Positions 27,929 to 63,080 of a stretch of 64,000 nt of DNA are shown here, piece by piece (the stretch's first letter is position 1; the number at the start of each line of letters is the position of its first letter). A program made the translations under genes and the position numbers. The notes under the pieces are model-generated. The model did not search any database and was not told where the DNA came from. It was given only the letters and a program-made list of their open reading frames with translations. Source of the DNA: an uncultured Opitutales bacterium (GTDB lineage Bacteria > Verrucomicrobiota > Verrucomicrobiia > Opitutales > JABDGR01); the NCBI GenBank assembly GCA_964562015.1, contig CAZLRH010000002.1, forward strand, positions 24,021 to 88,020. Direction: 5' to 3'.

Positions 27929-28124
27929 GGGAAATTATATTAATTGGTTCCTGGAAGCCGACAAGCCAGGAAAATCCATGGCTCCGACTTTGACCACCGC
28001 CCGAGGTGGTCTCAGCCCTGCCGTCATTCACGTTGGCACATCCCCTGCTCCCAGGCCGTCGTCACCCAACTTTCACCCATTTCCCGCTTCCTCAATCGCC
28101 GGCTCTTGTTAGTCTGCTCTTGTC

Positions 28125-30734
<2,610 letters not shown>

Positions 30735-35697: not shown

Positions 35698-35823
35698 TGA
35701 AGAAACCGGCCATGCCGGAAAAGTTACAATAGATAGTTTAAGGTGAACTGGGCGGAACCCGCCCGGCCCTTGCGCTTTCTTATGGTTATTTTCCGGGTTC
35801 TGGTTAAACTTATCACCCTGCCC

Positions 35824-36900
35824 ATGAAGATACCTTTTTTCTCCCGCCCGGCCACGAGCCTCGTGACTTTGCTCGCCACCGGCTTGGCCCATGGCCAAGC
35901 CACCCCCGCCCCGTTGTATCCGCCGCCGGCCGCGACCTCGTCGGTGCCCGCCTCCACGGTCCCGTCGGCCCCTGCGCCCGCCCCGGTCGCTCCGGCCCCG
36001 GCCACCGTTATTCCCACGGTGCCCCCGGCCACAGCCGCCGCCACTGCGACGGCGGACGCCGCCGCGCCGACCCCGCAACGTGATACCCTCGGTGTGAGCG
36101 ACATCAAAGTACTCCCGGCCTTGCTCACGGAAGCCCGGCGCAACGGCACCTCCAGCGCCCTCGAGCGCGTCGCCCAGTCGCTGGACAGCCAGCTCATCGC
36201 CGCCCTCGGCTCCACCCGCAAATTCCAATTGGTGGGCCGCAGCGACCTCGACGTCATTCTCAAGGAGCAATCGCTCTCGAATTCCGGCACGGTGGACGAC
36301 GCCTCCGCCGTGAAGATGTTCAAGCTCGCGGGCGCGACCTACATCCTGACCGTCAGCATCGACAATTTCCAGGACCGCACTGAAACCGCGACCTTCTCCG
36401 CCCTCGGCGAGCAGGCCCAGCGCCGGAAGGTCACACTTTCCTGCATTGCCAAAATCTATTCGGCACAATCCGGCAAGCTCCTCGAATCCGCCAACATCCA
36501 GCTCGACCAGACGGACGCCCGCAACGACCCGAATTACATCGCTTCCGCCGGCTCCAATTGGGCCGACAAACTGCTCGTGGATCTCGCGCGCACGGCCTCG
36601 GAAAAAATCGCCCAGAGCGTCACCGACTCGCTTTATCCCGCCAAGGTGGTCGCCAAAACGGACAAGCAAATCACCCTCAATCGCGGCGAGGGCACCGGCA
36701 TCGCCGTCGGCCAGACGTGGATCATTTATAACGTGGGCAAGGAGCTCATCGATCCCGACACCGGCCTGAGCCTCGGCCGCGAGGAAGTCGCCATCGGCAA
36801 GGCCAAAATCACCTCCGTCACGCCGCGTACCGCCCTCGCAGAATTGACTGAGGACCGCGGCGTCGCGCCCTTGAACACCGCCCGGCAAACGGATCAGTAA
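35824..36900 (+). CDS. periplasmic CsgG/LPP20-like (TolB-N-like fold) protein with Pro/Ala-rich N-terminal linker
   Basis: Signal peptide MKIPFFSRPATSLVTLLATGLAHG. Core KFQLVGRSDLDVILKEQSLSNSGTVDDASAVKMFKLAGATYILTVSIDNF resembles the CsgG/LPP20/LpoB-N family pattern. Family assignment tentative. Confidence 0.45.
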   Translation: MKIPFFSRPATSLVTLLATGLAHGQATPAPLYPPPAATSSVPASTVPSAPAPAPVAPAPATVIPTVPPATAAATATADAAAPTPQRDTLGVSDIKVLPALLTEARRNGTSSALERVAQSLDSQLIAALGSTRKFQLVGRSDLDVILKEQSLSNSGTVDDASAVKMFKLAGATYILTVSIDNFQDRTETATFSALGEQAQRRKVTLSCIAKIYSAQSGKLLESANIQLDQTDARNDPNYIASAGSNWADKLLVDLARTASEKIAQSVTDSLYPAKVVAKTDKQITLNRGEGTGIAVGQTWIIYNVGKELIDPDTGLSLGREEVAIGKAKITSVTPRTALAELTEDRGVAPLNTARQTDQ

Positions 36901-36953
36901 ATTCCCCGCCTGACCGCTCGGGACTCTTTCGGAAATCTTCCGCGCCCAGCCCG

Positions 36954-38408
36954 ATGAAACCTTTTAGCGTGCTCGGCGGAGCGATTTTGGCCCTCCTGTT
37001 GGGCGGCTGCGCGACGTATAAAGATGACACGGAAGGGCTGCGCACCGCGTGGGCCGCCGGCAATGTGAAACAGGCCGCGCAAATCGCGGGCTCAAACGCC
37101 GAGCAAAAGAAGGGCTCCGGCACGGCGCTGCTGTGGTATCTGGAGGACGGCGCAACCACGCGGGCCGACGCCCAATTCGACCGCAGTCTGGCCGCCTTCA
37201 ACCAGGCGGACGCGAAAATCGATTATTGGGACAGCCAGCCCGCGGTGTCCGTCTCCGCCGAGGCCGCGGCCATCATGGTCAACCAGACGGTGCTTTCCTA
37301 CCGCGGCACCTCCTATGATAAAATCATGGAGAGTACTTATCAAGCGCTGAACTATCTCCAGTTGGGCCAGCCCGACCAGGCCCGCGTCGAGCTGAACCGC
37401 GCCCGTGAGCGCCAGCGCGCCGCGGTGGAGGCCAATGCCGCCCGCATCGCCTCGGCCCAGGAAGCCGCCGCCGCCGCCTCCAACGGCACCTTGAACGCGA
37501 ATTCCGCGGCCGCGAACAAGACCGCACCCGAGGATTCTTATGACGTGCAGCGCGCGCAAAATGATCCCGGATTCAAGGCCAATCTCCAAAACGCCTACGG
37601 CTCGCTCGACGGGCTCCACTACTACACGCCGTACGTGAATCCCTTCAGCGTTTTTCTCGAGGGGATTTACTTTCTGGCGCGCGGCGACACCGGCGCGGAC
37701 CTCGAACGCGGGCGCGTGGCGCTCAACCAGGTGCGCAGCCTGACCGGTGACAATCCCTTCATCAACGCCGATTGCGACCTTGCGGACAAGATGGCGAACG
37801 GCGCGCCCCTGCCGGAGACTACCTATGTCATCTATGAAACGGGCATGGCGCCGATTCGCGATGAAGTGCGGATCGACATTCCGCTTTTCATTGTTAGCCG
37901 GTCGGTGCCGTACGTCGGGGTGGCGTTTCCGCAACTGCGGTTCAACAGCCAGTACAACCCCGGCCTGATCGTGCAGGCGGGCAAGGGTGAACCTCTGCGC
38001 ACCGTGTTGCTGTGCGACATGGATCTCGTGATTGCCCAGGAATTTCGGAACGAATTGCCGGTCATCATTGTCAAAACCCTTATCTCCGCCGGTGCCAAGG
38101 CGGCGGCCCAGTACGGCCTCTACGCCGCCACCAAGGGCAACAACGCCCTTTCCCTGTTCGCGGAAATCGGCGGCACCCTCTACCAATTCGCCACCAACCG
38201 CGCCGACTTGCGCACGTGGGTCACCCTGCCCAAGCAGTTCGTGTATTGCCGCCTGCCCACCCCCGCCGACCGGAAACTCCAACTCACCAACCAAGGGACC
38301 GGCCTGACGCAGACTGTTGACCTCCCGCCGGGCGTCGTTACCATTGTGTACGTCAAAAGCAACACCTTCGCTGACCGCCTCCTCGTCAATACCTTTACCC
38401 TTCGTTGA
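36954..38408 (+). CDS. hypothetical lipoprotein (484 aa)
   Basis: Lipobox ALLLGGC. No confidently recognised domain. Tightly linked (4-bp gap) to the YcfL-like gene. Confidence 0.5.
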   Translation: MKPFSVLGGAILALLLGGCATYKDDTEGLRTAWAAGNVKQAAQIAGSNAEQKKGSGTALLWYLEDGATTRADAQFDRSLAAFNQADAKIDYWDSQPAVSVSAEAAAIMVNQTVLSYRGTSYDKIMESTYQALNYLQLGQPDQARVELNRARERQRAAVEANAARIASAQEAAAAASNGTLNANSAAANKTAPEDSYDVQRAQNDPGFKANLQNAYGSLDGLHYYTPYVNPFSVFLEGIYFLARGDTGADLERGRVALNQVRSLTGDNPFINADCDLADKMANGAPLPETTYVIYETGMAPIRDEVRIDIPLFIVSRSVPYVGVAFPQLRFNSQYNPGLIVQAGKGEPLRTVLLCDMDLVIAQEFRNELPVIIVKTLISAGAKAAAQYGLYAATKGNNALSLFAEIGGTLYQFATNRADLRTWVTLPKQFVYCRLPTPADRKLQLTNQGTGLTQTVDLPPGVVTIVYVKSNTFADRLLVNTFTLR

Positions 38409-38411
38409 CCC

Positions 38412-38840
38412 ATGAAAAAATCCGCCCTTCGCATTTTCGCCGCCGCCACGCTGGGCCTTGCGTTGCTCGCCGGTTGCTCGACCGTCAATACCGTCGAGCC
38501 CGCCAATCCGCAGGCCCGCCCCAACCGCGTGGACGACAAGCGCATCATCACCGACTCCGACCTCAACGACATCGCCTACGTGCAAAATGTTTATGAGACC
38601 ACCGTCAGCGGCAATCTCAAGCGCGTGCAGGTGACGATCCGGAATCTCACTTCCACGGTAAAAAACGTGAATTACAAATTCACCTGGTTTGACGGCCAGG
38701 GCATCGTGGTGGATTCGCCGATGAGCCTTTACCAGTCCGTGTCCATCGAAGGCGGGGCTTCCTTGCCGCTGACCTCGACCGCGCCGAATCCAAAGGCCGT
38801 GGACTTCAAACTCGAACTGCTCGGCTCCGTCCGCCGCTAA
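38412..38840 (+). CDS. YcfL-like (DUF1425) lipoprotein
   Basis: Lipobox LLAGC. Size (142 aa) and the pattern NLKRVQVTIRNLTSTVKNVNYKFTWFDGQGIVV...SIEGGASLPL fit the YcfL family. Confidence 0.5.
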   Translation: MKKSALRIFAAATLGLALLAGCSTVNTVEPANPQARPNRVDDKRIITDSDLNDIAYVQNVYETTVSGNLKRVQVTIRNLTSTVKNVNYKFTWFDGQGIVVDSPMSLYQSVSIEGGASLPLTSTAPNPKAVDFKLELLGSVRR

Positions 38841-38855
38841 CTTTCTCCCTTCTCC

Positions 38856-39458
38856 ATGAAAACCTCCCCTCTTTTTCTCGCTGTACTCCCTGCGCTGCTG
38901 CTGGCCGGTTGCGGCTCGCCGCCGAACTCGGCCCAATACGTGGACCCGAACGGCCCGCGCACCATCGTGTCGCTGAACCAAATCGACATCCAGGATTTCA
39001 ACGGCGCCGCCGCGACGATGACCCAGTCGCTCCTCAACAGCGGGGTGCTCGAAAAAGCGCCGACGCAACCGGCGGTGATGGCCATTTCGCGCATCACCAA
39101 CGACACCGGCCAGCAATTTGACACGGACTACCTGATCAAGAACATCCGCGTGGCGCTGAACAACAGCGGCAAAGTCGTCACCACCACGACCACCGGCCTC
39201 GGCGGCAAGGCGGAAGACCCGCTGGCCCGCGACGCCGGCAACATGCAGGCGTTCATGCAGGGCCAGCCGGCGCCCTCACGCATTCCCTATTACAGTTTGT
39301 CAGGCAAGATTCTCGCCAGTACCGCCAAGGCCGACGACATCTACCAACGCACGTACACATTTCAACTGAGCCTGACGGAAATTGCCTCGGGCAATGCCGT
39401 TTGGGAGGATCAAAAGCAAATCACCAAGCAAGGCAAACAGCCGGCGGTCGGGTTTTGA
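38856..39458 (+). CDS. LpoB-like lipoprotein (penicillin-binding-protein activator LpoB family, COG3417-like)
   Basis: Lipobox LLAGCGS. PTQPAVMAISRITNDTGQQFDTDYLIKNIRVALNNSGKVVTTT resembles the LpoB globular domain. Adjacent to a ycfL-like gene as in E. coli ycfL-lpoB. Confidence 0.5.
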   Translation: MKTSPLFLAVLPALLLAGCGSPPNSAQYVDPNGPRTIVSLNQIDIQDFNGAAATMTQSLLNSGVLEKAPTQPAVMAISRITNDTGQQFDTDYLIKNIRVALNNSGKVVTTTTTGLGGKAEDPLARDAGNMQAFMQGQPAPSRIPYYSLSGKILASTAKADDIYQRTYTFQLSLTEIASGNAVWEDQKQITKQGKQPAVGF

Positions 39459-42048: not shown

Positions 42049-42122
42049 GCGGAAAAACCGTCGCTATGATTCGCAAACTCCGGCGCACTGGCAAGCTTCA
42101 CTCGCGCTGCCTACGCGCTCGC

Positions 42123-44006
42123 TCATGCCGTGGCCTCGGTCGGCGTCGGGGCTGGCGGCGTCTCAGCCGCGGCTTTGGCCGCCGTTTCCTGGCGCAGGCG
42201 CCGGTAATCGTCGAGCTTGCGTTTGCGCAAGTCGTCCGCCTGGGATTTGACTTCAGCCTCGATGGCGAATTCCTCGCGCACGACTTCCATGTCCTCGATG
42301 TCGGGCGGCACGGTGCCGATGGCTTCCTCGAGGGTGGAAAAACCCGCGCGCACTTTTTTCATGCTGTCCTGGTGCAGGGTGGACATGCCGTTCATCATCG
42401 CGATGCGCTTGATCATGGCCGTCTCGGCCTCCTTGTTGATGGCTTCGACGAGGGCTTCGCTCGTGCCCATCAATTCATGGATGCCCACGCGGCCCTTGTA
42501 GCCGGTGCGGTTGCAGGCCGGGCAGCCCTCCGGGTTCGCGCGGAAAATCTGGCCGCGCCATTGAATCGCCTTGAGCAGAATCTCCGCTTCGCGGCCCACC
42601 GGTTCGAAAGGCTGCTTGCAGGCCTTGCACACGCGCCGCATGAGGCGCTGCGCGCACACACACACAAGGGAGGCCGATACCATGAACGGCTCGACTTCCA
42701 TCTCCGTGAGGCGCGCGACCGTCGAAGGCGCATCATTGGTGTGCAGGGTGGAAAAAAGCATGTGGCCGGTGAGCGCAGCCTCGACCGCGATGCCCGCAGT
42801 TTCCTTGTCGCGAATTTCGCCGACGAGGATGATGTCCGGATCCTGGCGCAAAAAAGCGCGCAGCGCGGTCGCAAAAGTCAGGCCGATCTTGCGGTGCATC
42901 TGCATCTGGCACAGGCCCGGGAGCGTGTATTCAATTGGGTCCTCGGCGGTGCGGATGACCAGGTCCGGCGAATTGATTTCATTCAACGCCGAATAAAGCG
43001 TCATGGACTTGCCGGAGCCGGTCGGGCCGCAGTGCAGCAACATGCCGAACGGCCGCTGGAGCAATTCGCGATAAAGCATCAAATTCTCGGGCTCAAACCC
43101 CAGCGCGGGCAGCGGCAAGGTGGATTTCTGCTTGTCCAGAATACGCATGACGACGCCTTCGCCGTGATTCAACGGGGCCGTGGAGATGCGCAGATCGATG
43201 TCGAGATTCTTGCGCGTGTGCTGCTTGAAAACAATACGGCCGTCCTGCGGCAGGCGCTTTTCCGCAATGTCGAGATTCGCCATGACTTTCAGGCGGGCAA
43301 TGAGCGCGCCGGAGACCTTGGCCGGAATCGTCAACTTTTCCTGGCAATTGCCATCGATGCGGACCCGCACCCGGGTGGATTTCTCGAACGGCTCGATGTG
43401 AATGTCGCTGCCGCCCGAGTAATAGGCGTCCTCGATGATGCGGTTGGCCAGTTGGATGATGGGCGCGGAATCCTCGCTCTCCATGCCATTCTCGATGTCT
43501 TCCTCCGTGGTGGCCTCGTCCATGCCGAGCGCCTCAACGACATCGCCAAAGCCCTCGGAATGGGTCGGCTCCTTTTTCTCGTCCAACAATTCCGCCAGCT
43601 CGGATTCCACCGCAAGCAGGAGGGCCACTTTCTGGCGGGTGAGTTCCTGAATCTTGTGGGTGACCTGGAGATTGAACGGGTTGGCCAGCGCCACGATGAG
43701 AAAGCTGCCGGCCTGACCCACGGGCAGCACTTTATTTTCGCAGCAGAAATCACGATCCAGTTTTTGGAAAGTCAATTCGTCCACCTGGAAATTGCGCGCA
43801 AAAAACGGGCTGAGGCCGAAGGCGCGGCTGCGGGCGATGTGCAGGGCGGGATCCGATATCTTGTACTCCGTCTGCAAAAGTTTGCCGAGCCCCTCGCCGG
43901 ACATGTCGGCCGAGGAATTGATCAAGGCGGTGGCCTGCTCCTCCGTCAATTTGCGGAGGGACTTCAAGTGGTTGACGATGGAGGCTTGGATGCGCGCAAG
44001 TGCCAT
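42123..44006 (-). CDS. GspE/PilB-family secretion ATPase (type II secretion / type IV pilus assembly ATPase-like) with charged C-terminal extension
   Basis: GSPII_E N-domain. Walker [13 protein letters not shown]. Asp box. Walker [13 protein letters not shown]. His box [12 protein letters not shown]. Tetracysteine CKACKQ...[12 protein letters not shown]. An extra acidic/Lys-rich tail of about 60 aa (...[25 protein letters not shown]...PTEATA). Confidence 0.85.
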
Positions 44007-44181
44007 GGGAGACGGCGGAAACCCAGCCCGCCCGAACCCCCAGCATAGCGGGAGAACGGCAAAAAGATAGAGCAGAACTTCGGGTCGACCGCGCTTTGAC
44101 AGATTTTTTATGGCGCGACTAAACTAATCTAAACAACGCTAGAAAAACCTGCCCCCACGACCGGCCGGAAGGGTGGCGGCC

Positions 44182-45516
44182 TCAGGCGCCCGGAATCAAT
44201 TCGGGATAAATCAGCGAAAGGTCGTCGAGGTTGCCGATGCTGCCGAGCAAGGCGGGATCGATTTTGAAATTCTTCAGGAGGGCCACCGGCTCGACACCGG
44301 CCCGGCGCGCGGATTCGGCGATAAATTCCCGTTGCTTGGCAATCAAATAAGATTCCATCCTATCCGGCACCACGCTTTCGTCGGTCGCGAGGAGTTTGGC
44401 GGCGTCGGCGCCGGCCAGCGGCGGCACATGCTCGGTGGCGACCACGCGGCGCGCGACGTCCACCACCTCCAGATAGTTACCGGGCCAGGCGTAACCGAGG
44501 AGCGTCGAAACGGCCTCGGGCGACAATTGCGCGCGCTCGGCGTCGCCTTCGCGGCGGGAAAACAAGTCCAGGTGCAGCTTGAGGTAGGTGGCCAGGTCCG
44601 CCAGGCGCTCGCGCAACGGCGGCAGGACGATGAGGTGGTTCTTCACCACGTCGAACATCTCCGGGCTGCTTTCCGGAAGCATCTGCGGGTAGCGCGTGAT
44701 ATCGAGGAAGAAAACCCAGGAAACCTCGCGGCCGTTGGGCAGGAATTTCGGGTCCGCCGCGAGCAGCTTTTGCACGAGCTCGATTTGGCCGCGCGTGGCC
44801 TCGCCAAAATCCGTGATGGCCACGAGCTTGCTCACCGCGGTCTGGCCCGGCAGTTCGCGAATGGCCTGCAAGACTTCCAGCGATTCAATCTGCGCGATGG
44901 AAAATTGATGAATGGGCAGCCCCGCAAAGCCGTACCAGCCGGACAGTTCGCAAGTGATCAACTCGATTTCTGCGCCGGGCGGCAGGCCCACAAATTGATA
45001 ATTACCCGAACGCGAGGCGTCCCACAATTGCTGGGCAAAATGCTGCGAGCCCTCGGTCGCGTCGGCCAAATGCACCAATTCGGGATAAGTCCGAACCCAG
45101 GCATCTGACGTGCCCTCGGGCTTGGGCTGGGCCGCGGCGCGCTCCTCTTCGGACATGGGCTGCACGAACCGGCGCACGTGGTTGAGGAACGCTTTAATAT
45201 CGAGGGGCTTTTCCAGGACAAGCGTCACATCCATGTTGGCCACTTTGACCAGCTCGGGGGTGTTCATCAGCCCGGACACCATGATGATTGGAAGATTCGG
45301 CAAACGGGCGCGGGCGCGCTCCATGAAATCCGCGCCGTCCATCACCGGCATTTTGTAGTCGGCGATGACGAGATCGAATTCCTCGGCATCGAGCGCCTTC
45401 AAGGCATCGTGGGGCCGGGTCACCATTTCTGTGCGGAAGCCCTCCTGCACGAGCAAGTCGCGCAGCATTTCCGCATAGTTTTCCTCGTCGTCGAGGACTA
45501 GAATTTTACCAGACAT
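44182..45516 (-). CDS. response regulator: receiver domain + degenerate sigma54-activator-like AAA+ domain (predicted ATPase-dead)
   Basis: REC: ILVLDDEENYAEML...DLVIADYKMPVMDG...IIMVSG. Central domain aligns to NtrC-type AAA+ but Walker A is GLPPGAEIE (not GESGTGKE). Walker B is FFLDI (not FLDE). GAFTGA is WYGFAGL. LPPLRERLADL and YAWPGNYLEVVDVARRVV are retained. Confidence 0.65.
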   Translation of the reverse strand: MSGKILVLDDEENYAEMLRDLLVQEGFRTEMVTRPHDALKALDAEEFDLVIADYKMPVMDGADFMERARARLPNLPIIMVSGLMNTPELVKVANMDVTLVLEKPLDIKAFLNHVRRFVQPMSEEERAAAQPKPEGTSDAWVRTYPELVHLADATEGSQHFAQQLWDASRSGNYQFVGLPPGAEIELITCELSGWYGFAGLPIHQFSIAQIESLEVLQAIRELPGQTAVSKLVAITDFGEATRGQIELVQKLLAADPKFLPNGREVSWVFFLDITRYPQMLPESSPEMFDVVKNHLIVLPPLRERLADLATYLKLHLDLFSRREGDAERAQLSPEAVSTLLGYAWPGNYLEVVDVARRVVATEHVPPLAGADAAKLLATDESVVPDRMESYLIAKQREFIAESARRAGVEPVALLKNFKIDPALLGSIGNLDDLSLIYPELIPGA

Positions 45517-50740: not shown

Positions 50741-52441
50741 CTAGCGTTTTCGCTTACGCAGCAAAACCAGTCCGCTGGCGCCCAGCGCCATGACCAAGGC
50801 GACCGTGGATGGCTCGGGCGCGGGGGTGTAAGTGAAATTGCCCGGGTTGAGCGTGATTTCGACATACATGTTGTCCAACGCGGAGGAGGAGTTGAGCGGA
50901 TTGTAAAACACATCCGGGTTGAGGCCGCCTTGGATGCGGTCGGAAAAAGCGAAGGTGTAGGCATCGGTTTGCGTGGCAAACGCGCCGGAGTAGGAATTGT
51001 AGAACTCGGGGTTGATCTGAATACTGCTGCCCACCCACTTGGCGATGTCGGTATTATTCCCCTGCAAGGAAAGGAGATAGAAGAACTGACCGGAGGACAG
51101 GTTGCCGATGGTCAAATTGGCCGAGGCGTTGCCCGAGGCAAAGATGGAATTATTAAGGTTGGTCGTGGTGCTTGTGTTCCCCGCATGGCCCAAAACGGTT
51201 TCCCCATTGGTGGCCAGGCCGAAATTGAGATCCGCCATGAGGTCGCCCACCACCCGGTCCATGAGATTGTTGGAATTCACCGTGCTGACCGCGGTGCCAT
51301 TCCAATAGGCGACGTAGCTGGGGTTGGCGCCATAGATGCCGTTGATGTTGTCGAGTTGGGAATCCGTGACGAAAACATCGAAGCTCCCGACACTTCCGCC
51401 CGAGCCACTGATGATGACTCCGGAGCTGCTGCCCGTGATACCCTGGCCGCTGAGCGCAGCTATCTCGGTGCCGCTCAGCCCAGCCGTGAGGTTGGACTTA
51501 AAAGTGGCGTTCATGTTGTAGCTTTGATTTTGCAGAAAAAGATTGCCGGTGTCCGCCGGAAAGGGGGTGGTGCCCTGTCCCGCCTGGGTGCCGGCGTAAC
51601 CGAAAATCGTGCCCGCCAGCCGTTGTCCGCCCGGGGGCGTAAAGCTCGAGATGTTTAGCGAAATATTATTGCTTCTCATCCACGGGATGAGGGCAGTATT
51701 GCCGACGTTGCCGGTCGCGGGCGCGAGCCAGCTGTGATAATCAGCAATCGGAGGGACGCCGACGATGCGGGCCGTGCCGCTCAAATTACCCAGCGTGGCG
51801 CCGCTGGAATTGACCACGGCGTAGTTGGCGGCGATACGGGCATCGAGCGGCGTGACCACGGTACTGGCGGTCAGGAGATTAAAAATGGTCGGACCGGGCG
51901 TGGTGTTGATCTCGTTCGCCTGTCCGGGGAGCGTGACGAGGCTGCCATCGGCGCGCGATTTGATGGCAAAGTCCGCCGGCATGCTGACGAAGTTCACATA
52001 CGAGGTGTCCACGTTGTTTTGCGTGCTCCCCGCATTGATGTAGGTTTCGAAACGCGCGGACACCAAGGGGTCGGTGGACCCCGGAGTGTTGCCGCCAATC
52101 TGCGTGCCCGCCGTGAAATCAATAAAGCTGTTATAGAAAGTTCCGATATTGACCGTGGAAACAATCCCCGTGGGCCCGCCGGCCCCGGCGCCGGAGACTG
52201 TGCCATACAAGTCCGCGAGGCTGTAAGAAGTGGACAGTGCACCAGCACTGCCATTGCCGAGAGTCACGTTGCCAAACACCGTTGCGCCGCCGCCGACAAA
52301 GGTCAGGTACAGGGCATCATCCGGGATGCCGGTGTTGTTGACGATGACCAGTTGGGTCGTGTTGTTTTGAGCAAAAGCGGCCGGACCAAGCAATCCAGCG
52401 CCCAGCGCGAGCGAAACGGACACAAATAAACGCAGCTTCAT
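50741..52441 (-). CDS. PEP-CTERM-anchored secreted protein, Asn/Gly/Thr/Ser-rich (beta-helix-like)
   Basis: Signal peptide MKLRLFVSVSLALGAGLLGPAAFA. C-terminus PAPEPSTVALVMALGASGLVLLRKRKR is a canonical PEP-CTERM sorting motif (PEP, TM helix, basic tail). Confidence 0.8.
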   Translation of the reverse strand: MKLRLFVSVSLALGAGLLGPAAFAQNNTTQLVIVNNTGIPDDALYLTFVGGGATVFGNVTLGNGSAGALSTSYSLADLYGTVSGAGAGGPTGIVSTVNIGTFYNSFIDFTAGTQIGGNTPGSTDPLVSARFETYINAGSTQNNVDTSYVNFVSMPADFAIKSRADGSLVTLPGQANEINTTPGPTIFNLLTASTVVTPLDARIAANYAVVNSSGATLGNLSGTARIVGVPPIADYHSWLAPATGNVGNTALIPWMRSNNISLNISSFTPPGGQRLAGTIFGYAGTQAGQGTTPFPADTGNLFLQNQSYNMNATFKSNLTAGLSGTEIAALSGQGITGSSSGVIISGSGGSVGSFDVFVTDSQLDNINGIYGANPSYVAYWNGTAVSTVNSNNLMDRVVGDLMADLNFGLATNGETVLGHAGNTSTTTNLNNSIFASGNASANLTIGNLSSGQFFYLLSLQGNNTDIAKWVGSSIQINPEFYNSYSGAFATQTDAYTFAFSDRIQGGLNPDVFYNPLNSSSALDNMYVEITLNPGNFTYTPAPEPSTVALVMALGASGLVLLRKRKR

Positions 52442-52641
52442 AGTGGCAATGTGGGTAGCTAATTCGACTAAATGGGTCAACGCGCAAAACATGGCTCAAA
52501 GCAACCCTTTGTCATACTCGTCGCCAGGCCCGACCTGCTGGATTTCGATTGGATGATGTACGGCATCGCTTAGTTTGACTCGACGACGCAGAGCTTGCGG
52601 CGGTAACAATCTAGTCCCGCTCCTTAATTCTATTTTACTTC

Positions 52642-53777: not shown

Positions 53778-53872
53778 ACCCAGTATTATTTTCCACCCGG
53801 ACTCCCGGGGGTCGGTTGAGAGTCAGATTTGACGAACCGACAGTTATGGGTAGATGTAGTCCCACACCATTC

Positions 53873-55090
53873 ATGAACGCTCGTGCGCAAATTCTGCCGC
53901 TCCGTGCGGTTACTGCGGCCTGGACCCTCGCCGGGCTGGCCTTGCTGGCTGGCTGCGGAAAGTCCAATCAGGCGGCCCCCGCCGGCATGCCGCCCTCGCT
54001 GGTGACGGCCGCCACGGCCACCGCCCAGGATGTGCCCAAATACCTGGACACCATCGGCCAGACCACGGCGTACGAGGCGGTCAATATCGTTTCCCAAGTG
54101 GAGGGCCAGATCATCGAAATGCCCTTCCAGCAAGGCTCCCTGGTGAAAAAAGGCGACGTGCTGGCCGTGATTTTCCAGCCGCCGTTTGTCGCCGCCGTGG
54201 AGCGGTCCTCCGGGGTGGTCGCCTCTGACGAGGCCAACCTCGCCATCGCCAAGTTGCAGGTGGAACGCAGCCAACCGCTGACGGCCGACAACCTCGTTTC
54301 GAAACAGCAGTACGACACCTGGCAGTCGCAGGTCAAAGCCCTCGAGGGCCAGTTGGCCGTGGACAAGGCCAACCTCGACCTCGCGAACATCAATCTCGGC
54401 TACTCCACCATTCGCGCGCCGGTCGACGGCATGGTGGGCGTGTACAAGATCAACATCGGCAATGTCGTCAAAATCAACGATGCGCCAATCACCACCATCC
54501 AGCGCATGGACCCGATTTACGCGGACTTCGTGGTGTCGGTGACGGATTTTCCCGCGATGAAAAAATATTTCGCCGACAACGGTGGAAAACTCGGCGTGCA
54601 CGTCGAAAGCCTCTCGGACGCCACGCAGGCCAAGGACGGTAATTTGACGATTCTCGGCAACGCCATCTCCGCCTCCACGGGCACGGTCTCGGTGCGCTGC
54701 ACGATGCCGAATGACGATTTGCTCTTCTGGCCCAACGAACCGGTGCACGCCCGCATTTTGCTGACGACCCTCAAGGACGCCGTGCTGATTCCCAAGGAAG
54801 CGGTGCAGTTGAACCAGCAGGGCCGCTTCGTGTTTGCCATCAAACCGCCCGCCAAAGCCGGGGACCCGGAAACCGTCGAACAGCGCCCGGTGGAAATTGG
54901 CCAGCCGCAGGAAGGCGGCCTGATTGTCGTCAACTCGGGCGTCAAGGTTGGCGAAAAAGTCGTCGTGCGCAACCCGCTCTTTTTGCAGGACGGCGGCCCG
55001 GTCATGGTGGCGGAATTGGACGGCAAATCCCTCCTGCCGCCGCCCGATGCCGGCCGCCGCGGCGGCCCGCCGCCCGCGGACAAGAAGTAA
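53873..55090 (+). CDS. efflux RND transporter periplasmic adaptor subunit (MFP) 1
   Basis: Lipobox LAGC. IGQTTAYEAVNIVSQVEGQIIEMPFQQGSLVKKGDVLAVI (lipoyl/beta-barrel MFP core). About 70% identical over the core to the 58591..59814 product. Confidence 0.9.
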   Translation: MNARAQILPLRAVTAAWTLAGLALLAGCGKSNQAAPAGMPPSLVTAATATAQDVPKYLDTIGQTTAYEAVNIVSQVEGQIIEMPFQQGSLVKKGDVLAVIFQPPFVAAVERSSGVVASDEANLAIAKLQVERSQPLTADNLVSKQQYDTWQSQVKALEGQLAVDKANLDLANINLGYSTIRAPVDGMVGVYKINIGNVVKINDAPITTIQRMDPIYADFVVSVTDFPAMKKYFADNGGKLGVHVESLSDATQAKDGNLTILGNAISASTGTVSVRCTMPNDDLLFWPNEPVHARILLTTLKDAVLIPKEAVQLNQQGRFVFAIKPPAKAGDPETVEQRPVEIGQPQEGGLIVVNSGVKVGEKVVVRNPLFLQDGGPVMVAELDGKSLLPPPDAGRRGGPPPADKK

Positions 55091-55165
55091 ACCGCCCGTC
55101 GCTGCCACCGACGGTGGCAATCCCTCCCGCCTTTTCACCCTCTCCTTGCCGCGCCTGCACCGCCG

Positions 55166-58100
55166 ATGAACAGTATTTCCGACCCGTTTATCAAGCGCCC
55201 GGTGATGACCATGCTGGTGTACCTCGGGGTGCTGGCCTTTGGCGCGTACGCATTTATATTACTCCCGGTCAGCGACCTGCCGACCGTGGACTACCCGGTC
55301 ATCCAAGTCACCGCCTCCTATCCCGGCGCGAGCCCGGACACCGTGGCCGCGAATGTGGCCTCGCCGCTCGAGCAGCAGTTCCTGAAAGTGCCGGGCATTG
55401 AAATCGTCACCTCATCGAGTTCGCAGGGCAATGCGCAGCTCGTCCTGCAATTCCACCTCGACAAATCCATCGACGCGGCGGCGAGCGACGTGCAGGCGGC
55501 CATCAACCAGGCGCAGGGCAACCTGCCGGCGGATCTCCCCTCCCCGCCCACGTTCCGCAAAACCAATCCGAACGAGCAGCCGATGATGTATATCGGCGCC
55601 ATCTCGTATTCGATGACGGCGACGCAGCTTTATGATTTCGCCTACACGGAACTGGTGCAGCGGATGCAAGTGGTGCCGGGCGTCTCGAACGTGCAGGTGT
55701 ACGGCTCACCCCGCGCGGTGCGCGTGCAGGTGGACCCCGAGAAACTTTATTCACTCGGCCTGAGTTTCAACGACGTGAACCAGGCGGTGCAGCAAGGCAC
55801 CAATCTGGTCGGCGCGGGGCAATTGAAGAGCAACACCTACCAATTCACGCTCCAGCCGAGCACCCAGTTGGAAATGGCGGACGACTACGCCAAGCTCATC
55901 ATCGCCTACAAGGACGGCGCCCCGATTTACCTGCGCGATGTGGCCAGCGTCATCGATACGACGCAGTTTGAGGACTTGAAGATGGACTTCTGGTCCAAGC
56001 GCATTCCCAAACCCGGCGCGGTCGGCATCGTGCTGGCCGTGACCAAGGCGGACGGCGCCAACGCCGTGGAAGTTTCCAAGGGCCTGCGCGCGTTGCTCCC
56101 GCAACTCCAGCAAATCATCCCGAAGTCCATTACGCTGGTGCCCATTTATGATCGGGCGAACAGCATCATCGCCTCCGTGCACGACGTGGAGGAAACGCTC
56201 GGCATCGCGTTTGTGCTGGTGGTGCTGGTCGTGTTCTTCTTCCTCGGGCGCGTGGCGGACACCGTGATCCCCGCGGTGGCGCTGCCGATGTCCCTGCTGA
56301 TGACGTTCATCGTCATGCGGCTGTGCAATTACACCCTGGACAACCTTTCGCTGATGGCGCTGACGCTCTCCATCGGCTTCCTGATTGATGACGCCATCGT
56401 GTTTTTGGAAAACATGGTGCGGCGCATGGAAGCTGGCGAATCCGTGCGCGAAGCCACCTTCAAGGGCGCGAAGGAAATCAGCTTCACCATTTTGGCGATG
56501 ACCCTTTCCCTCGCGGTGGTGTTTCTCCCGCTGGTCGGCATGAGCGGCTTGATCGGGCGGATTTTCCGTGAACTCGGGGTGACGATCGTCGTCGCGGTGC
56601 TGGCCTCCGGCATTGTCTCGCTGACGCTGACGCCTATGATGTGCTCGCGCATCATCCAGGATCGCGGGCGCGACACGAAGACGCTGGTCGAGCGGTTCGC
56701 CCACTGGATTGAGGGCCGGTGCATCGCGTTCTACAGTCCGACGCTGACCTATGCCCTGAAACACTGGTATTTGTCCGTCATTGCGATGGTGCTGTGCTTC
56801 GTAGGCATCGGCGTCTTCGGTTACCTCGTGCCCAAATCGCTGCTGCCCACGGGCGACAGCGGCTTCATTTCCGGCGTGTTCATCGCCGCGCCCAGCACGT
56901 CCCCCACGCTCATGCACGAATATCAGAGCAAGGTGGACGACAGCCTGCGCACCAATCCTTATGTGGACAGCTACGTGTCGGTGTCGGGTTTCGGGCAATT
57001 CCTGAATTCCAACTTTGGCATCGTGTTCGTGCTCCTGGATGAGGCCGGCCAAAAGCTGGCCGACGGCAAGCCCCGTCCGAAGATTGACGCCGTCAACGGC
57101 ATGTTGATGGGCCAGATTTTTCAAATCCCCGGCCTGATTGCGGGCATTCGCCCGATGCCGGTGCTGCAAATCAGCGCCGGCGCCTCGGCTTCGAACTCCG
57201 GCAAGTACCAGTACGTGCTTTACGGCTTGGATAAGGCCAAAGTGCAATTGGCGGGCTTTGCGCTCATGGGGGCCATGTCACAATATCCGAATGTGTTCGG
57301 CCAGGTGACTCCCGATCTTTTCCCGATGAACCCGGTGTTGGATGTGAAGTTGAACCGGCAGCAGGCTTCGCAGTACGGCGTGACGGCGACCAACTTTGCC
57401 CAACTGATGTCCACCGCCTACGCCCAGAACTTCTCCTACCTGATCAAGAGCGACTACCTCCAATACTGGGTGGTGGTCGAGGCCAAGCCCAAGTACCGCG
57501 CCAATGTCGGCGACCTCGACTGGCTCTATTTCAATTCCCTGACAAACCAGAGCACGCTGTACAACACCGGCAGCGCGTTTGACGTGAGCAACAACCTCGT
57601 GCCCTTCCGTGCCATCGGCACCACGTCGCCGAAAATCGGCCCGATCGCGGTCAATCACTTCAACGGCTTTTCGTCCGTGACGCTGTCGTTCGATTTGCAA
57701 CCCGGCATCCCCCTCGGCGTGGCGACGAATGCCATTGAACAAATGGCGGCGTCGATGACGCCCCAATACATTGCCCCCGACATCACGCGCACGTTCCAAG
57801 GCGAAGCGCTGTTGTTCAACGAGGCCCAGGTCAGCCTGCTGCTGGGCATGTTGGTGGCCTTCTTTGTGATGTATATCATCCTGGGAATTTTGTACGAAAG
57901 CTATGTCCACCCCTTCACCGTGCTGCTCTCCATCCCGCTGGCGTTCGCGGGCGGTTTGGGCACGCTGTGGCTGTTTGGGCGGGAACTCTCCCTTTATTCC
58001 GGCATCGGGATGTTCATGCTCGCCGGCATCGTGAAAAAGAACGGCATCATGATGATCGACTTCGCCATCATGCGGCAGGAGGAGGGGCGCAGCCCGAGCG

Positions 58101-58417
58101 ACGCCGTGCACGAGGCCAGCATGGAGCGATTCCGCCCGATCATCATGACCACGCTCGCGGCCTTTTTTGGCGCGGTGCCGCTGGCCATCGGCCTCGGGGC
58201 GGACGCCGAATCGCGCATCCCCTTGGGGCTCACCATCTGCGGCGGCTTGCTGGTGTCCCAACTCATCACGCTTTACGTCACTCCGGTCACCTATCTTGGT
58301 TTTGAGTGGCTGCAAACCCGCGTCCTGGATCGCATCGGTTTCTTTGCGCGCGGGGAAAAGGATTTGGACCGGCCCGCCACCCCGACCGCCCCGCCGGTGG
58401 CCACTCCGGGCGCCTAG
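55166..58417 (+). CDS. efflux RND transporter permease (HAE1 family, MdtB/MdtC/AcrB-like) 1
   Basis: FIKRPVMTMLVYLGVLAFG start, 12-TM architecture, 1083 aa, AcrB family blocks throughout. Confidence 0.95.
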   Translation: MNSISDPFIKRPVMTMLVYLGVLAFGAYAFILLPVSDLPTVDYPVIQVTASYPGASPDTVAANVASPLEQQFLKVPGIEIVTSSSSQGNAQLVLQFHLDKSIDAAASDVQAAINQAQGNLPADLPSPPTFRKTNPNEQPMMYIGAISYSMTATQLYDFAYTELVQRMQVVPGVSNVQVYGSPRAVRVQVDPEKLYSLGLSFNDVNQAVQQGTNLVGAGQLKSNTYQFTLQPSTQLEMADDYAKLIIAYKDGAPIYLRDVASVIDTTQFEDLKMDFWSKRIPKPGAVGIVLAVTKADGANAVEVSKGLRALLPQLQQIIPKSITLVPIYDRANSIIASVHDVEETLGIAFVLVVLVVFFFLGRVADTVIPAVALPMSLLMTFIVMRLCNYTLDNLSLMALTLSIGFLIDDAIVFLENMVRRMEAGESVREATFKGAKEISFTILAMTLSLAVVFLPLVGMSGLIGRIFRELGVTIVVAVLASGIVSLTLTPMMCSRIIQDRGRDTKTLVERFAHWIEGRCIAFYSPTLTYALKHWYLSVIAMVLCFVGIGVFGYLVPKSLLPTGDSGFISGVFIAAPSTSPTLMHEYQSKVDDSLRTNPYVDSYVSVSGFGQFLNSNFGIVFVLLDEAGQKLADGKPRPKIDAVNGMLMGQIFQIPGLIAGIRPMPVLQISAGASASNSGKYQYVLYGLDKAKVQLAGFALMGAMSQYPNVFGQVTPDLFPMNPVLDVKLNRQQASQYGVTATNFAQLMSTAYAQNFSYLIKSDYLQYWVVVEAKPKYRANVGDLDWLYFNSLTNQSTLYNTGSAFDVSNNLVPFRAIGTTSPKIGPIAVNHFNGFSSVTLSFDLQPGIPLGVATNAIEQMAASMTPQYIAPDITRTFQGEALLFNEAQVSLLLGMLVAFFVMYIILGILYESYVHPFTVLLSIPLAFAGGLGTLWLFGRELSLYSGIGMFMLAGIVKKNGIMMIDFAIMRQEEGRSPSDAVHEASMERFRPIIMTTLAAFFGAVPLAIGLGADAESRIPLGLTICGGLLVSQLITLYVTPVTYLGFEWLQTRVLDRIGFFARGEKDLDRPATPTAPPVATPGA

Positions 58418-58590
58418 GTTAAAGAAGGCGGGCAACTTTTGGCTTTCGCCACGGTCGGAGGTTCGTCACACTCTTTCGTTTCCCAGCCCAAGTCTAACGC
58501 TGGGCCGGTTAAGCCCCTGGATTAAATTTCAAACAACTGTTTGATTTTTTGCCCGAGCTGGATCATATTCGGCCTACTTTCTCCCACGTT

Positions 58591-59814
58591 ATGTACCCGT
58601 CCGCGAGTTCCCCCCTCACCCCGTCTGCCCGCGCCGCCTGGACTTTGCTGGCGGCCTGCGGCCTGGCCGGCTGCGCGGCCAAATCGGCGCCGCCGGCCGA
58701 AGCGCCGCCCCGCACCGTCTCGGCGGCCACCGTCGTCACCCGCGATGTCCCGCGTTACCTCGACGCCCTGGGCCAGATGACGGCCTATGAATCAGTGAAC
58801 ATTGTCTCCCAAGTGGATGGCCAAATCGTGGAGATGCCGTTCCAGCAAGGCTCGCTAGTCAAGAAAGGCGACAAATTGGCCGTCGTTTACCAGGCGCCGT
58901 TTGCCGCCGTCCTGCAGGAAGCCAAGGGCCTCCTCGATGTGGACAAAGCCGGCCTCAAACTGGCCCAATCCCAGCTCGAACGCAGCCGGCCGCTCCTCAG
59001 CGGCAATCTCGTTTCACAGCAGCAATTTGACACCTACTCCTCGACGGTCGACCAGTTGATGGGGAAAATCGATGTCGATGAGGCCCACGTCAAGACCGCG
59101 CAAATCAATTACGACTACACCACCATTCTCGCCCCGATTGACGGCATGGTCGGCACGTACAAAATCAGCGTTGGCAACGTGGTCAAGGGCCAGGATCAAA
59201 TCCTCACCACCATCCAGCGGATGGACCCGATTTACGCCGATTTTGTGGTTTCCGTGGACGACTTCCCCCGCTTGCGCGACTACTTCGACAAGAATGGCGG
59301 CACGCTGCGCATCGTCGCCGCGGACATGTCCGACCCCACGCGGATGCGCGAAGGCAACCTCACCATTTTGGCCAACGCGATTGCCGGCTTGACGGGCACC
59401 GCGGCCTTGCGTGCGACCATGCCCAATTCCGACCGCCTGTTCTGGCCCAATGAGCCCGTGCGCGTGCGCGTGTTCTTGGACACCTTGCAGGGTGCGATGC
59501 TGGTGCCGGAATCCGCGGTGCAATTGAGCCAGCAGGGCTCATTCGTCTTTGTCATTAATCCGGCCGCCAAAGCCGGTGCCGCAGCCACGGTCGAAAAGCG
59601 CATCGTGCAAGCCGGCCAGACGCAGGACGATGGGTTGACCGTCATCAATTCCGGGCTGAAGGCTGGTGAAATGGTCGTGGTGCACGGTCAGGTGTTTTTG
59701 CAGCCGAATGCAGTCGTCAAAGTCATGGAACTGGACGGCCATGCCCCTGATGCCGCTCCGGCAGCCTCCACCGTAACCGCCACCACTCCCGCCCCCGCCC
59801 AGCCTAAATCCTAA
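58591..59814 (+). CDS. efflux RND transporter periplasmic adaptor subunit (MFP) 2
   Basis: Lipobox LAGC. LGQMTAYESVNIVSQVDGQIVEMPFQQGSLVKKGDKLAVV. Paralogous to MFP 1. Confidence 0.9.
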   Translation: MYPSASSPLTPSARAAWTLLAACGLAGCAAKSAPPAEAPPRTVSAATVVTRDVPRYLDALGQMTAYESVNIVSQVDGQIVEMPFQQGSLVKKGDKLAVVYQAPFAAVLQEAKGLLDVDKAGLKLAQSQLERSRPLLSGNLVSQQQFDTYSSTVDQLMGKIDVDEAHVKTAQINYDYTTILAPIDGMVGTYKISVGNVVKGQDQILTTIQRMDPIYADFVVSVDDFPRLRDYFDKNGGTLRIVAADMSDPTRMREGNLTILANAIAGLTGTAALRATMPNSDRLFWPNEPVRVRVFLDTLQGAMLVPESAVQLSQQGSFVFVINPAAKAGAAATVEKRIVQAGQTQDDGLTVINSGLKAGEMVVVHGQVFLQPNAVVKVMELDGHAPDAAPAASTVTATTPAPAQPKS

Positions 59815-59861
59815 GCTGCGGATTTTCACCATTTGCACCACCCTCCTGCTTTGTCTTTGCG

Positions 59862-62800: not shown

Positions 62801-63080
62801 GATGACGACCCTCGCCGCCTTTTTCGGCACCCTGCCGCTGGCCATCGGCCTGGGCGCGGACGCCGCCTCCCGCCAGCCGCTCGGGTTGACGATTTGCGGG
62901 GGCCTCGTGGTCTCGCAACTGGTCACGCTCTTCGTCACCCCCGTAACCTTCCTCGGGCTCGAGTGGGTGCAAGTGCGAATTCTCGACCGCATTCCGTTTT
63001 TTGCCCGGCGCCACCACCTGCATTCGGACGCCCCGCCGCTGCCCGGATTGGACCAAAAAATCCCGACGCCGGCGGTCTGA
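59862..63080 (+). CDS. efflux RND transporter permease (HAE1 family) 2
   Basis: 1072 aa, collinear paralog of 55166..58417 (FIKRPVMTMLVYLTVSAFG...). Confidence 0.95.
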   Translation: MNSLSDPFIKRPVMTMLVYLTVSAFGIYSYIMMPVSDLPTVDYPVIQVTASYPGANPEVMASNVAAPLEQQFLQIPGIDIVTSNNSQGNSKMVLQFQLDKSIDGAASDVQAAINRAQGSLPADLPSPPTFQKSNPNDFPVIFLGVISYSMTAGQLYDYAFTEIAQRLQTVPGVASVNTYGSPRAVRIRVDPHKLYSRGLTFDDITGAIRGGTSLQSAGQIKGNSIQMTVKPRTQLEHSDDYSKLIIADKDGAPVFLRDVAEVVDSLQSEDMRMQYWSKTIPAGSVGVVLSVTKASGANSVEVAQGVQAMIPKLRQIIPQSMQILPIYDRSVSIRNSIEDVDVTLLIAFVLVVLVVFLFLGRVADTIIPAVALPMSLLLTFIVMHLCGFSLDNLSLMALTLSVGFLIDDAIVFLENMVRRMEAGEHVWTAAFNGAKEISFTILAMTLSLASVFIPLVGMSGLMGRVFRELGVTIIVAVVASGVVSLTLTPMMCSRLLTAHEPHKRSLLERSAHFIEERLLAIYSPMLTFALRHWYLSVAAYALCGFGVYWFALNVQKTFLPEGDSGFVSGAWIVDTDTSPQQMKQYQDRIIEAVSKVDHVLGFVTVSGFTQRNNSNSGSMFIALDDPKNRPPIKDVTNQIKAVMAQIPGVVPSLRPRPVLNISAGATNNNQGKYAYTISGLDKDKVYASGYALMDRMLKSKLFSIVNPDYFPDNRQLEISLDRDQASNYGVGAAGLAQTISNAYSQNYSYLIKNDFQQYWVIVEAAPEYRARPGNLDQIFFNSQTNQGSLYSATAGGEDLSRLVPFRTAAKTNVTLGPLAVNHINGFTSFTLSYDLAPGVGIGTATDFIAQAAAEIVPPELTRGFQGDALIFRQTVVSMGVMFLVAIFVMYVILGILYESYIHPITVLSSLPVAIVGGLGTLWLFDSELSLYAWIGVFMLAGLVKKNGIMMIDFAIARQSEGRTPYEAVHEACLERFRPIMMTTLAAFFGTLPLAIGLGADAASRQPLGLTICGGLVVSQLVTLFVTPVTFLGLEWVQVRILDRIPFFARRHHLHSDAPPLPGLDQKIPTPAV

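Follow-up and report, generated by a model that had tools for sequence, protein, structure and literature searches.

A response regulator with a degenerate enhancer-binding-protein AAA+ domain is paired with a PilB/GspE-type ATPase gene in Opitutia

Introduction

Enhancer-binding proteins (EBPs) are textbook ATP-driven activators of transcription, and atypical EBPs act independently of sigma-54 yet bind DNA. What might a protein of this ancestry do once the motifs for ATP hydrolysis, for sigma-54 contact, and apparently for DNA binding have gone? The question is raised by a gene for a 444–amino acid (aa) response regulator with a dead EBP-type AAA+ domain. The gene lies at positions 44182 to 45516, on the minus strand, of a 64,000-nucleotide (nt) stretch of DNA from an uncultured Opitutales bacterium (assembly GCA_964562015.1, contig CAZLRH010000002.1, positions 24,021 to 88,020). 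We refer to this whole stretch as the window. The next open reading frame (ORF) downstream encodes a PilB/GspE-family assembly ATPase.

Opitutia, the class to which this bacterium belongs, are abundant degraders of polysaccharides in soil and sea. To our knowledge, almost nothing has been established about their regulatory biology. Here, we describe a regulator family that appears to have moved beyond the atypical EBPs: only the phospho-switch and the fold are left, and the gene is fixed beside a motor of the type IV pilus/type II secretion system class.

Results

A conserved family of full-length regulators

The regulator gene is listed as a single ORF of 444 uninterrupted codons, with its stop codon at 44182–44184. 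A search of 5.8 billion proteins returned 443 matches at E ≤ 1e-3. We aligned 115 of the listed homologues, all of full length (420 to 480 aa), and every count out of 115 given below comes from this alignment. The architecture of the regulator is common to all 115, at identities of 31 to 75%. The family comprises ~100 clusters of full-length proteins at 50% identity, and its labelled members and genome loci all belong to the class Opitutia of the Verrucomicrobiota. They include metagenome-assembled genomes of Opitutales, along with Puniceicoccaceae, Coraliomargarita, Thalassobacterium, Cerasicoccus, and Rubellicoccus.

A preliminary description of this DNA had allowed for an upstream frameshift that would make the gene a pseudogene. 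We find no frameshift, and the full-length ORF, conserved across the whole identity range, rules a pseudogene out. The peptide strings quoted in that description are all present in the translation. The regulator is an EBP-derived, receiver-controlled protein kept by purifying selection.

An intact receiver on an EBP-derived body

The N-terminal receiver domain (residues 1 to 120; 45157–45516, minus strand) matches Pfam Response_reg (PF00072) at residues 5 to 114 (E = 3e-20). It has the acidic pair (D9 and D10), acceptor Asp (D53), Thr/Ser (S81), and Lys (K103) of a two-component response regulator, so that all five catalytic positions are present. D53, S81, and K103 are invariant among the homologues, and D9 and D10 are at least 90% conserved. 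Together, these positions and their conservation bear out the earlier view of an intact receiver, with the phospho-acceptor in LVIADYKMP (45346–45372).

For the central domain, Sigma54_activat (PF00158) gives no match at E ≤ 1, and Pfam AAA_lid_14 matches residues 302 to 362 below threshold (23.8 bits; cutoff, 27). The NCBIfam models for NtrC, AtoC, NtrX, GlrR, and ZraR match the regulator in two stretches, far under their cutoffs. Brucella NtrX can be aligned with the family profile from one end to the other (positions 1 to 430), and the lids of NtrC1, NtrC4, ZraR, PspF, LuxO, and VpsR align with it as well. In an AlphaFold model built from the 115 sequences (mean predicted local distance difference test score, pLDDT, of 89.5), the receiver is followed by an alpha/beta core with five strands, by an alpha-helical lid, and by three helices at the C terminus; core and lid have the AAA+ fold of the EBP clade. 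When the full model was compared with the PDB using Foldseek, full-length NtrX, NtrC1, NtrC4, LuxO, VpsR, and FleQ ranked first; for the model without its receiver, the top 50 matches were all EBP AAA+ domains. The top fold matches, EBP AAA+ domains only, have template modeling (TM) scores of 0.56 to 0.68 when normalised by the target.

The family profile and the predicted fold thus both indicate that the central domain is EBP-derived, as had been proposed at the outset. Since the top fold and profile matches are all EBPs, a different AAA+ clade whose normal motifs happen to match those seen here is ruled out. A degenerate alpha/beta core (residues 144 to 298; 44623–45087, minus strand) is defined by the order of its predicted strands, by its alignment to canonical EBPs, and by Foldseek. 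The core is followed by the lid (residues 299 to 362; 44431–44622, minus strand), recognised by AAA_lid_14 and by profile matches and carrying the conserved segments LPPLRERLADL and WPGNYLEV. Within the lid, R304 is present in 112, D307 in 111, and W344 in all 115 homologues.

Loss of the ATPase and sigma-54 motifs

Motif columns were counted in an alignment of the 115 family members with 10 paralogues, described below, and 8 canonical receiver-EBPs from the loci retrieved. Where canonical EBPs have the Walker A sequence GESGTGKEL, the window protein has LPPGAEIEL, within GLPPGAEIEL (44959–44988, minus strand). The Walker A Lys occurs in none of the 115 members, and the Gly that precedes it has become Glu in 88 and Asp in 27. 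Between strands 2 and 3, every member has a 14-residue deletion that takes out the GAFTGA hairpin, and so do all 10 paralogues. At the Walker B position, assigned by alignment and predicted strand order, canonical TLFLDEIGEL corresponds to LVAITDFGEA on strand 3 (residues 231 to 240; 44797–44826, minus strand); the Asp is found in no member and the Glu in 5. The loop ahead of sensor I is five residues shorter than in canonical EBPs. Sensor I itself, placed in the same way, corresponds to WVFFLDIT on strand 4 (44695–44718, minus strand), a position with Asn in 4 members and Asp or Glu in 82. The arginine fingers (FRxDLxYRL) are all but lost: the second-finger Arg is kept in 4 of 115, and Arg is not among the five commonest residues at the first. 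The sensor II Arg is retained in 30 members and is Leu in the window protein.

Judged by these columns, no member of the family can be an active EBP, since neither ATP hydrolysis nor sigma-54 engagement would be possible. This agrees with the preliminary description, which held that the protein could not hydrolyse ATP or remodel sigma-54 and which correctly placed GLPPGAEIE at Walker A. Two of its three motif assignments, however, need revision. The loss of the Walker B Glu stands, but FFLDI, where that loss had been located, is the sensor I position. LVAITDFG, read as sensor-like, is part of the Walker B position. WYGFAGL (residues 194 to 200), which had been equated with GAFTGA, precedes strand 2, and the GAFTGA hairpin is deleted.

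In place of the P-loop, the family shares a new motif, P-x-G-x-[ED]-x-[ED]-L, with Pro in 80, Gly in 108, the first acidic residue in 115, the second in 110, and Leu in 108 of the 115 members. Other conserved elements are TYP, W165, W194 (invariant), LPPLxxRxxD in the lid, and W344 (invariant). The conservation of the P-loop replacement and of these other motifs points to a re-purposed surface rather than to drift. Two acidic side chains in what was the phosphate-binding loop would also make nucleotide binding unlikely.

A profile of residues 140 to 444 alone was searched against 1.84 billion representatives. It matched 96 proteins at E ≤ 1e-30, which, barring fragments, are ~370 to 500 aa long, with the domain starting at about residue 140 to 160. 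Neither Walker A nor GAFTGA was found in any family-type whole-domain match among the best 150, which therefore include no evolutionary intermediate retaining either motif. Canonical EBPs that retain their motifs do not come in until about E = 1e-25, and in them it is mainly the lid that is matched. One homologue, from Rubellicoccus peritrichatus (P0036; locus L002, 10001–11356), carries the database name “sigma-54-dependent transcriptional regulator”. This name is unsupported, as every motif required is missing.

A C-terminal region stripped of basic residues

The C-terminal region (44185–44430, minus strand), characterised from the model, profile alignment, and charge counts, occupies the position of a Fis-type helix-turn-helix (HTH) and is acidic. 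Its three predicted helices span residues 387 to 406, 410 to 416, and 421 to 425. It ends in a conserved tail motif, LSLIYPELIPGA (44185–44220, minus strand), that recurs across the family as the hydrophobic and acidic sequence LxLL[Y/F]P[E/D]L.

A Fis-type HTH in the last 60 residues had been suggested as something to look for. These residues do align with the Fis-type HTH of NtrX and of canonical EBPs, and the position is homologous, but the basic residues have been stripped away. The recognition-helix columns hold a mean of 0.6 Lys/Arg, compared with 4.4 in canonical EBPs, and the net charge of the region is −3.0, compared with +3.9. Pfam HTH_8 is absent both from the scan of the window protein and from the precomputed domains of 120 listed homologues. 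The DNA-binding surface has apparently been lost, and the regulator probably does not read DNA.

Between the receiver and the core, the linker (residues 121 to 143; 45088–45156, minus strand) is poorly conserved, with 24% identity across the family and low model confidence (pLDDT below 50 at residues 132 to 137). It ends in the family-conserved TYP motif, in which Y144 and P145 are at least 90% conserved. The receiver has 66 to 73% identity across the family. Compared with distant members, the window protein is 66% identical in the receiver, 23% in the AAA+ core, 39% in the lid, and 20% in the C-terminal region, while inside its close clade the core is 77% identical. By this measure, the phospho-switch is the most constrained part of the regulator. 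The body is maintained yet co-varies by clade, as would be expected of a partner-binding module.

An invariant pairing with a PilB/GspE-type ATPase

The neighbouring ATPase (627 aa; 42123–44006, minus strand) has the T2SSE domain (PF00437; E = 1.6e-123, 412.5 bits) and an N-terminal MshEN/GSPII domain (PF05157; 50.4 bits). Its motifs are those of a PilB/GspE assembly ATPase and are intact: Walker A (GPTGSGKS), Walker B (ILVGEIRD), the His box, and a tetracysteine (CxxC...CxxC) zinc site. The ATPase is thus apparently active. It scores 565 bits against the TIGR02538 PilB model and 528 bits against GspE, both under the equivalog cutoffs, and its nearest solved structures are the PilB proteins of Geobacter and Myxococcus.

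Of the related genome loci, 24 extend far enough downstream to be judged, and in all 24 a PilB orthologue (62 to 82% identity) immediately follows the regulator on the same strand. The gaps between the two genes in these loci are mostly 9 to 58 nt. The ATPase is the sole constant neighbour of the regulator across relatives; the other surrounding genes differ. A metagenome search with the ATPase as query gave 16 loci in which the upstream region could be judged. Upstream of the ATPase was the regulator in 8 of these, a protein of ~170 aa alone in 6, and neither in 2. The regulator is always accompanied by the ATPase, while the converse does not always hold.

Most relatives have a larger module than the window. 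In 21 loci, a second receiver–dead EBP paralogue lies just upstream of the regulator. This paralogue is 22 to 31% identical to the window protein and has GEPGMHY at the Walker A position. Examples are at L002 (6655–8001), L003 (8669–9967), and L009 (4675–5970), with 18 further loci; there is none beside the window gene. The clade that comprises the window and loci L005, L006, and L010 has a minimal two-gene form, without an adjacent paralogue.

The ~170-aa protein occurs in 19 genome loci, where its gene either precedes the paralogue or separates the regulator from the ATPase, and is absent from the window. As a single sequence it has no significant Pfam match. When its profile was compared with the PDB, the sole matches were to GSPII/MshEN domains at the N termini of PilF, PilB, and MshE (E = 6e-5 to 0.01); the match to a profile of the N terminus of the window PilB is weak (E = 0.058). 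The protein has a motif, RFLGxxLVxxGLI, that resembles the MshEN motif for binding cyclic di-GMP (c-di-GMP), and by its profile it is similar to the c-di-GMP–binding GSPII/MshEN fold family of MshE and PilF. It is encoded, for example, at L003 (8130–8642), L002 (5977–6492), L025 (7360–7899), L027 (7260–7763), L100 (4481–4951), and L101 (4475–4990).

The spacer between regulator and ATPase

In the window, the regulator and ATPase genes are separated by 175 nt (44007–44181, minus strand). A block of this spacer at about 44040–44130 (minus strand) resembles the equivalent spacer of a 71%-identical relative. The block, around ...ATAAAAAATCTGTCAAA...AAGTTCTGCT...TATGCTGG, is common to the L006 spacer and not clearly to that of L005. 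This conserved block may be a promoter or an operator.

Neither spacer flanking the regulator has a sigma-54 −24/−12 site (TGGCAC-N5-TTGC-like, with up to two mismatches), and sigma-54 promoter–like matches across the window are fewer than expected by chance. The best of them, TGGCACATCCCCTGCT (28034–28049, plus strand; one mismatch), lies ~75 nt upstream of a glycogen phosphorylase gene (28125–30734) and, given that the overall count is below chance, is possibly meaningless. A terminator-like hairpin after the regulator stop codon has no stability beyond that of shuffled sequence (z = 0.09), so we make no claim that regulator and ATPase are transcribed separately. Two antisense ORFs on the plus strand, of 660 aa (42066–44048) and 311 aa (44173–45108), overlap the ATPase and regulator genes. 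Similar antisense ORFs are seen in relatives only where they mirror the conserved genes, so the two look like artefacts of high GC content.

Discussion

A putative protein-level partner of the ATPase

The anatomy of the regulator and its linkage to the ATPase are solid at the level of sequence, and from them we infer a mechanism. We give roughly even chances to the proposal that the regulator is a phospho-switchable, non-catalytic partner that controls the neighbouring ATPase at the protein level. Asp53 would be phosphorylated by a histidine kinase encoded elsewhere in the genome, and this would alter the conformation or oligomeric state of the AAA+-like body and C-terminal tail. The body would then bind or release the ATPase, or its N-terminal GSPII domain. 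Assembly of a pilus or pseudopilus might thereby be switched on, switched off, or relocated without any change in transcription. In most relatives, the larger module would add the second dead-EBP paralogue and a free domain resembling the PilB N terminus, which fits a multi-protein regulatory complex around the ATPase. A phosphorylation-controlled scaffold had already been suggested in the preliminary description. We also favour this reading, for which the conserved pairing with a PilB-like gene supplies a candidate target.

A more specific version of the proposal is possible, though doubtful. Here, the dead AAA+ body would form a phosphorylation-dependent ring or half-ring that docks on the PilB-type hexamer, possibly with the paralogue and the GSPII-like protein, and would act as a signal-controlled clutch.

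Several observations weigh against a protein-level partner. Adjacency of the two genes is equally expected of a transcription factor and its target. PilB orthologues at L090, L095, L100, and L101 have only the 170-aa protein, or nothing, upstream, which indicates that the ATPase is not strictly dependent on a nearby regulator. The C-terminal region retains its homology to an HTH and has three helices, so that DNA binding in an unusual mode is conceivable. In the window, 175 nt separate the two genes, and this spacer, which is conserved in part, could be an operator. As the ATPase falls under both equivalog cutoffs, the machine concerned could be either a type IV pilus or the pseudopilus of a type II secretion system.

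Nor was a cognate kinase found among the 38 window ORFs scanned. The same scan found no rpoN, no other EBP, and no further pilus or secretion genes, so the search for rpoN and for a cognate kinase that had been recommended came out negative on both within these ORFs. In Rubellicoccus peritrichatus, the gene for a histidine kinase that binds cyclic nucleotide monophosphates (cNMPs; L002, 13306–14400, minus strand) comes directly after the PilB orthologue, in convergent orientation. This is a candidate cognate kinase in that genome, and it is not conserved in the other loci.

Alternative explanations

The main rival is an atypical EBP transcription factor of the TyrR, HupR, NtrX, or VpsR kind, which would bind DNA by its three-helix C-terminal domain and activate or repress the ATPase gene via sigma-70 polymerase, with neither ATP hydrolysis nor sigma-54. 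Such a class, without GAFTGA and with non-consensus Walker motifs, is recognised (PMC6158489), and the solved structures nearest to the regulator include those of NtrX and VpsR. The regulator also lies upstream of its presumed target, and in the window clade this target is preceded by an upstream region of its own that is shared in part with L006. The C terminus of the regulator aligns with the NtrX HTH. Nevertheless, we regard this explanation as unlikely. The recognition-helix columns and the net charge of the C-terminal region depart from canonical EBPs in the manner described above, and HTH_8 is found neither in the window protein nor in the listed homologues. The 9- to 58-nt gaps of most relatives leave no space for a separately regulated promoter. 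Furthermore, known atypical EBPs keep their DNA-binding domain, and NtrX has been crystallised with ATP and ADP (PDB titles), whereas the P-loop Lys has gone from every member of the present family.

An anti-activator, or poison subunit, would instead use its AAA+-like body to enter assemblies of its paralogue or of genuine sigma-54 activators, where it would block ring formation in a phosphorylation-dependent manner. This idea was part of the preliminary description. The lid and AAA+ fold, which mediate EBP oligomerisation, are indeed retained, many genomes have two tandem dead paralogues able to heteromerise, and sigma-54 activators exist in the lineage, such as the PspF-like gene near the Rubellicoccus locus. 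These features permit an anti-activator, but nothing here supports one, and we consider it improbable. It leaves unexplained the invariant pairing with a PilB-type ATPase and the PilB-N-like protein, and the family has lost the arginine fingers and the surface loops found along the interfaces between EBP subunits. The window clade also lacks an adjacent paralogue, and the scanned window ORFs provide neither an EBP nor rpoN as a nearby partner.

The explanation to which we give least credence is that of a phosphate sink or evolutionary relic, in which the receiver alone is of importance and the other domains are decaying and without function. The receiver is, after all, far more conserved than the rest when the window protein is compared with distant members (66% versus 20 to 39% identity). 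Yet ~300 non-receiver residues stay in frame and at full length in ~100 clusters at 50% identity. These residues include the conserved new P-loop motif, the invariant W194 and W344, the near-invariant Y144 and P145 (at least 90%), and the recurring tail motif. The core is well conserved in the close clade (77%), and the model is confidently folded (pLDDT, 89.5).

Relation to known regulators

Atypical EBPs, including Brucella NtrX, Vibrio VpsR, TyrR, HupR, HsfA, and PhhR, likewise combine a receiver, an EBP-type AAA+ domain, and a C-terminal helical domain, and they too have no functional GAFTGA and non-consensus Walker motifs (PMC6158489). They differ from the regulator in binding DNA as transcription factors, whereas the regulator's HTH is without basic residues. 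The regulator family is also set apart by the universal absence of the Walker A Lys, deletion of the GAFTGA hairpin, the conserved tail motif, and linkage to a PilB-type ATPase. FleQ and VpsR, which sense c-di-GMP, are cases in which the EBP AAA+ domain has been re-used as a ligand sensor; unlike the regulator, FleQ has an active P-loop and binds DNA.

PilR, which acts with PilS, and NtrC/NtrC1 share the regulator's domain order and ancestry, and PilR adds a thematic link to pilus genes. The classical target of PilR is the pilin promoter, which it activates. As active ATPases dependent on sigma-54, PilR and NtrC carry GESGTGKE, GAFTGA, the Walker B DE, arginine fingers, and a basic Fis-type HTH; the regulator has none of these. 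The comparison with PilR-PilS–type control drawn in the preliminary description is not supported, given the degenerate HTH and the lack of a sigma-54 promoter in the flanking spacers.

The closest functional parallels to the proposed partner are response regulators that bind PilB directly: DrdR of Xanthomonas (PMC13507683) and the PatA-type regulators, such as cyanobacterial PixE/PixG (bioRxiv 10.1101/2021.06.11.447907). In these proteins, and in Pseudomonas PilG/PilH, a phosphorylatable receiver is joined to a non-enzymatic output that binds PilB and alters its activity or localisation, which is what we propose for the regulator. Their outputs are a second pseudo-receiver, a PATAN domain, or no output domain at all, and not an EBP-derived pseudo-AAA+ body. 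The interaction with PilB has been demonstrated for these systems, while for the regulator it is suggested by the adjacency conserved in 24 of 24 loci.

Thus, atypical EBPs and PilB-binding response regulators are already known, but we found no description of an EBP lineage that has lost its ATPase motor, its contact with sigma-54, and the residues with which it would read DNA, and whose gene is tied to that of a traffic ATPase. In a 2024 review of PilB cofactors, the terms “NtrC”, “AAA+”, and “receiver” occur nowhere. Our literature search, whose coverage was incomplete and whose negatives are absence of evidence only, found no EBP-like pseudo-ATPase described as a cofactor of PilB or GspE.

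If the regulator does act on the motor, it would be a new kind of cofactor in PilB/GspE regulation, and would clearly exemplify a pseudo-enzyme that has passed from transcription into the control of a machine. Should it work as a ring or clutch, the family would represent a class of cofactors for traffic ATPases not described before, and no EBP lineage before it would have gone over entirely from transcription to protein-level control. It would also provide an entry point to the control of surface appendages or secretion in Opitutia.

Other features of the window

Of the remaining neighbours in the window, some serve folate, purine, and histidine metabolism; others encode an amidase-like protein, lipoproteins in clusters, and efflux pumps. 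Co-oriented genes at 3303–10431 (plus strand) encode DUF4129, DUF4350, a MoxR-type AAA_3 ATPase, DUF58, a SpoIIM-like protein, and RDD, and have the look of a MoxR/DUF58 (Bat-like) operon. A lipoprotein cluster at 35743–39458 (plus strand) comprises a CsgG/LpoB-like protein, a 484-aa protein without an assigned family, DUF1425, and an LpoB-like protein.

A gene at 50741–52492 (minus strand) encodes a 583-aa secreted protein rich in Thr, Ser, Gly, and Asn, with no Pfam match. Its C terminus, PAPEPSTVALVMALGASGLVLLRKRKR, resembles a PEP-CTERM sorting signal. Last, two tandem efflux units lie at 53816–63080 (plus strand). Each consists of an HlyD-type adaptor followed by an AcrB-family pump, at 53816–55090 and 55166–58417 in one unit and at 58549–59814 and 59862–63080 in the other.

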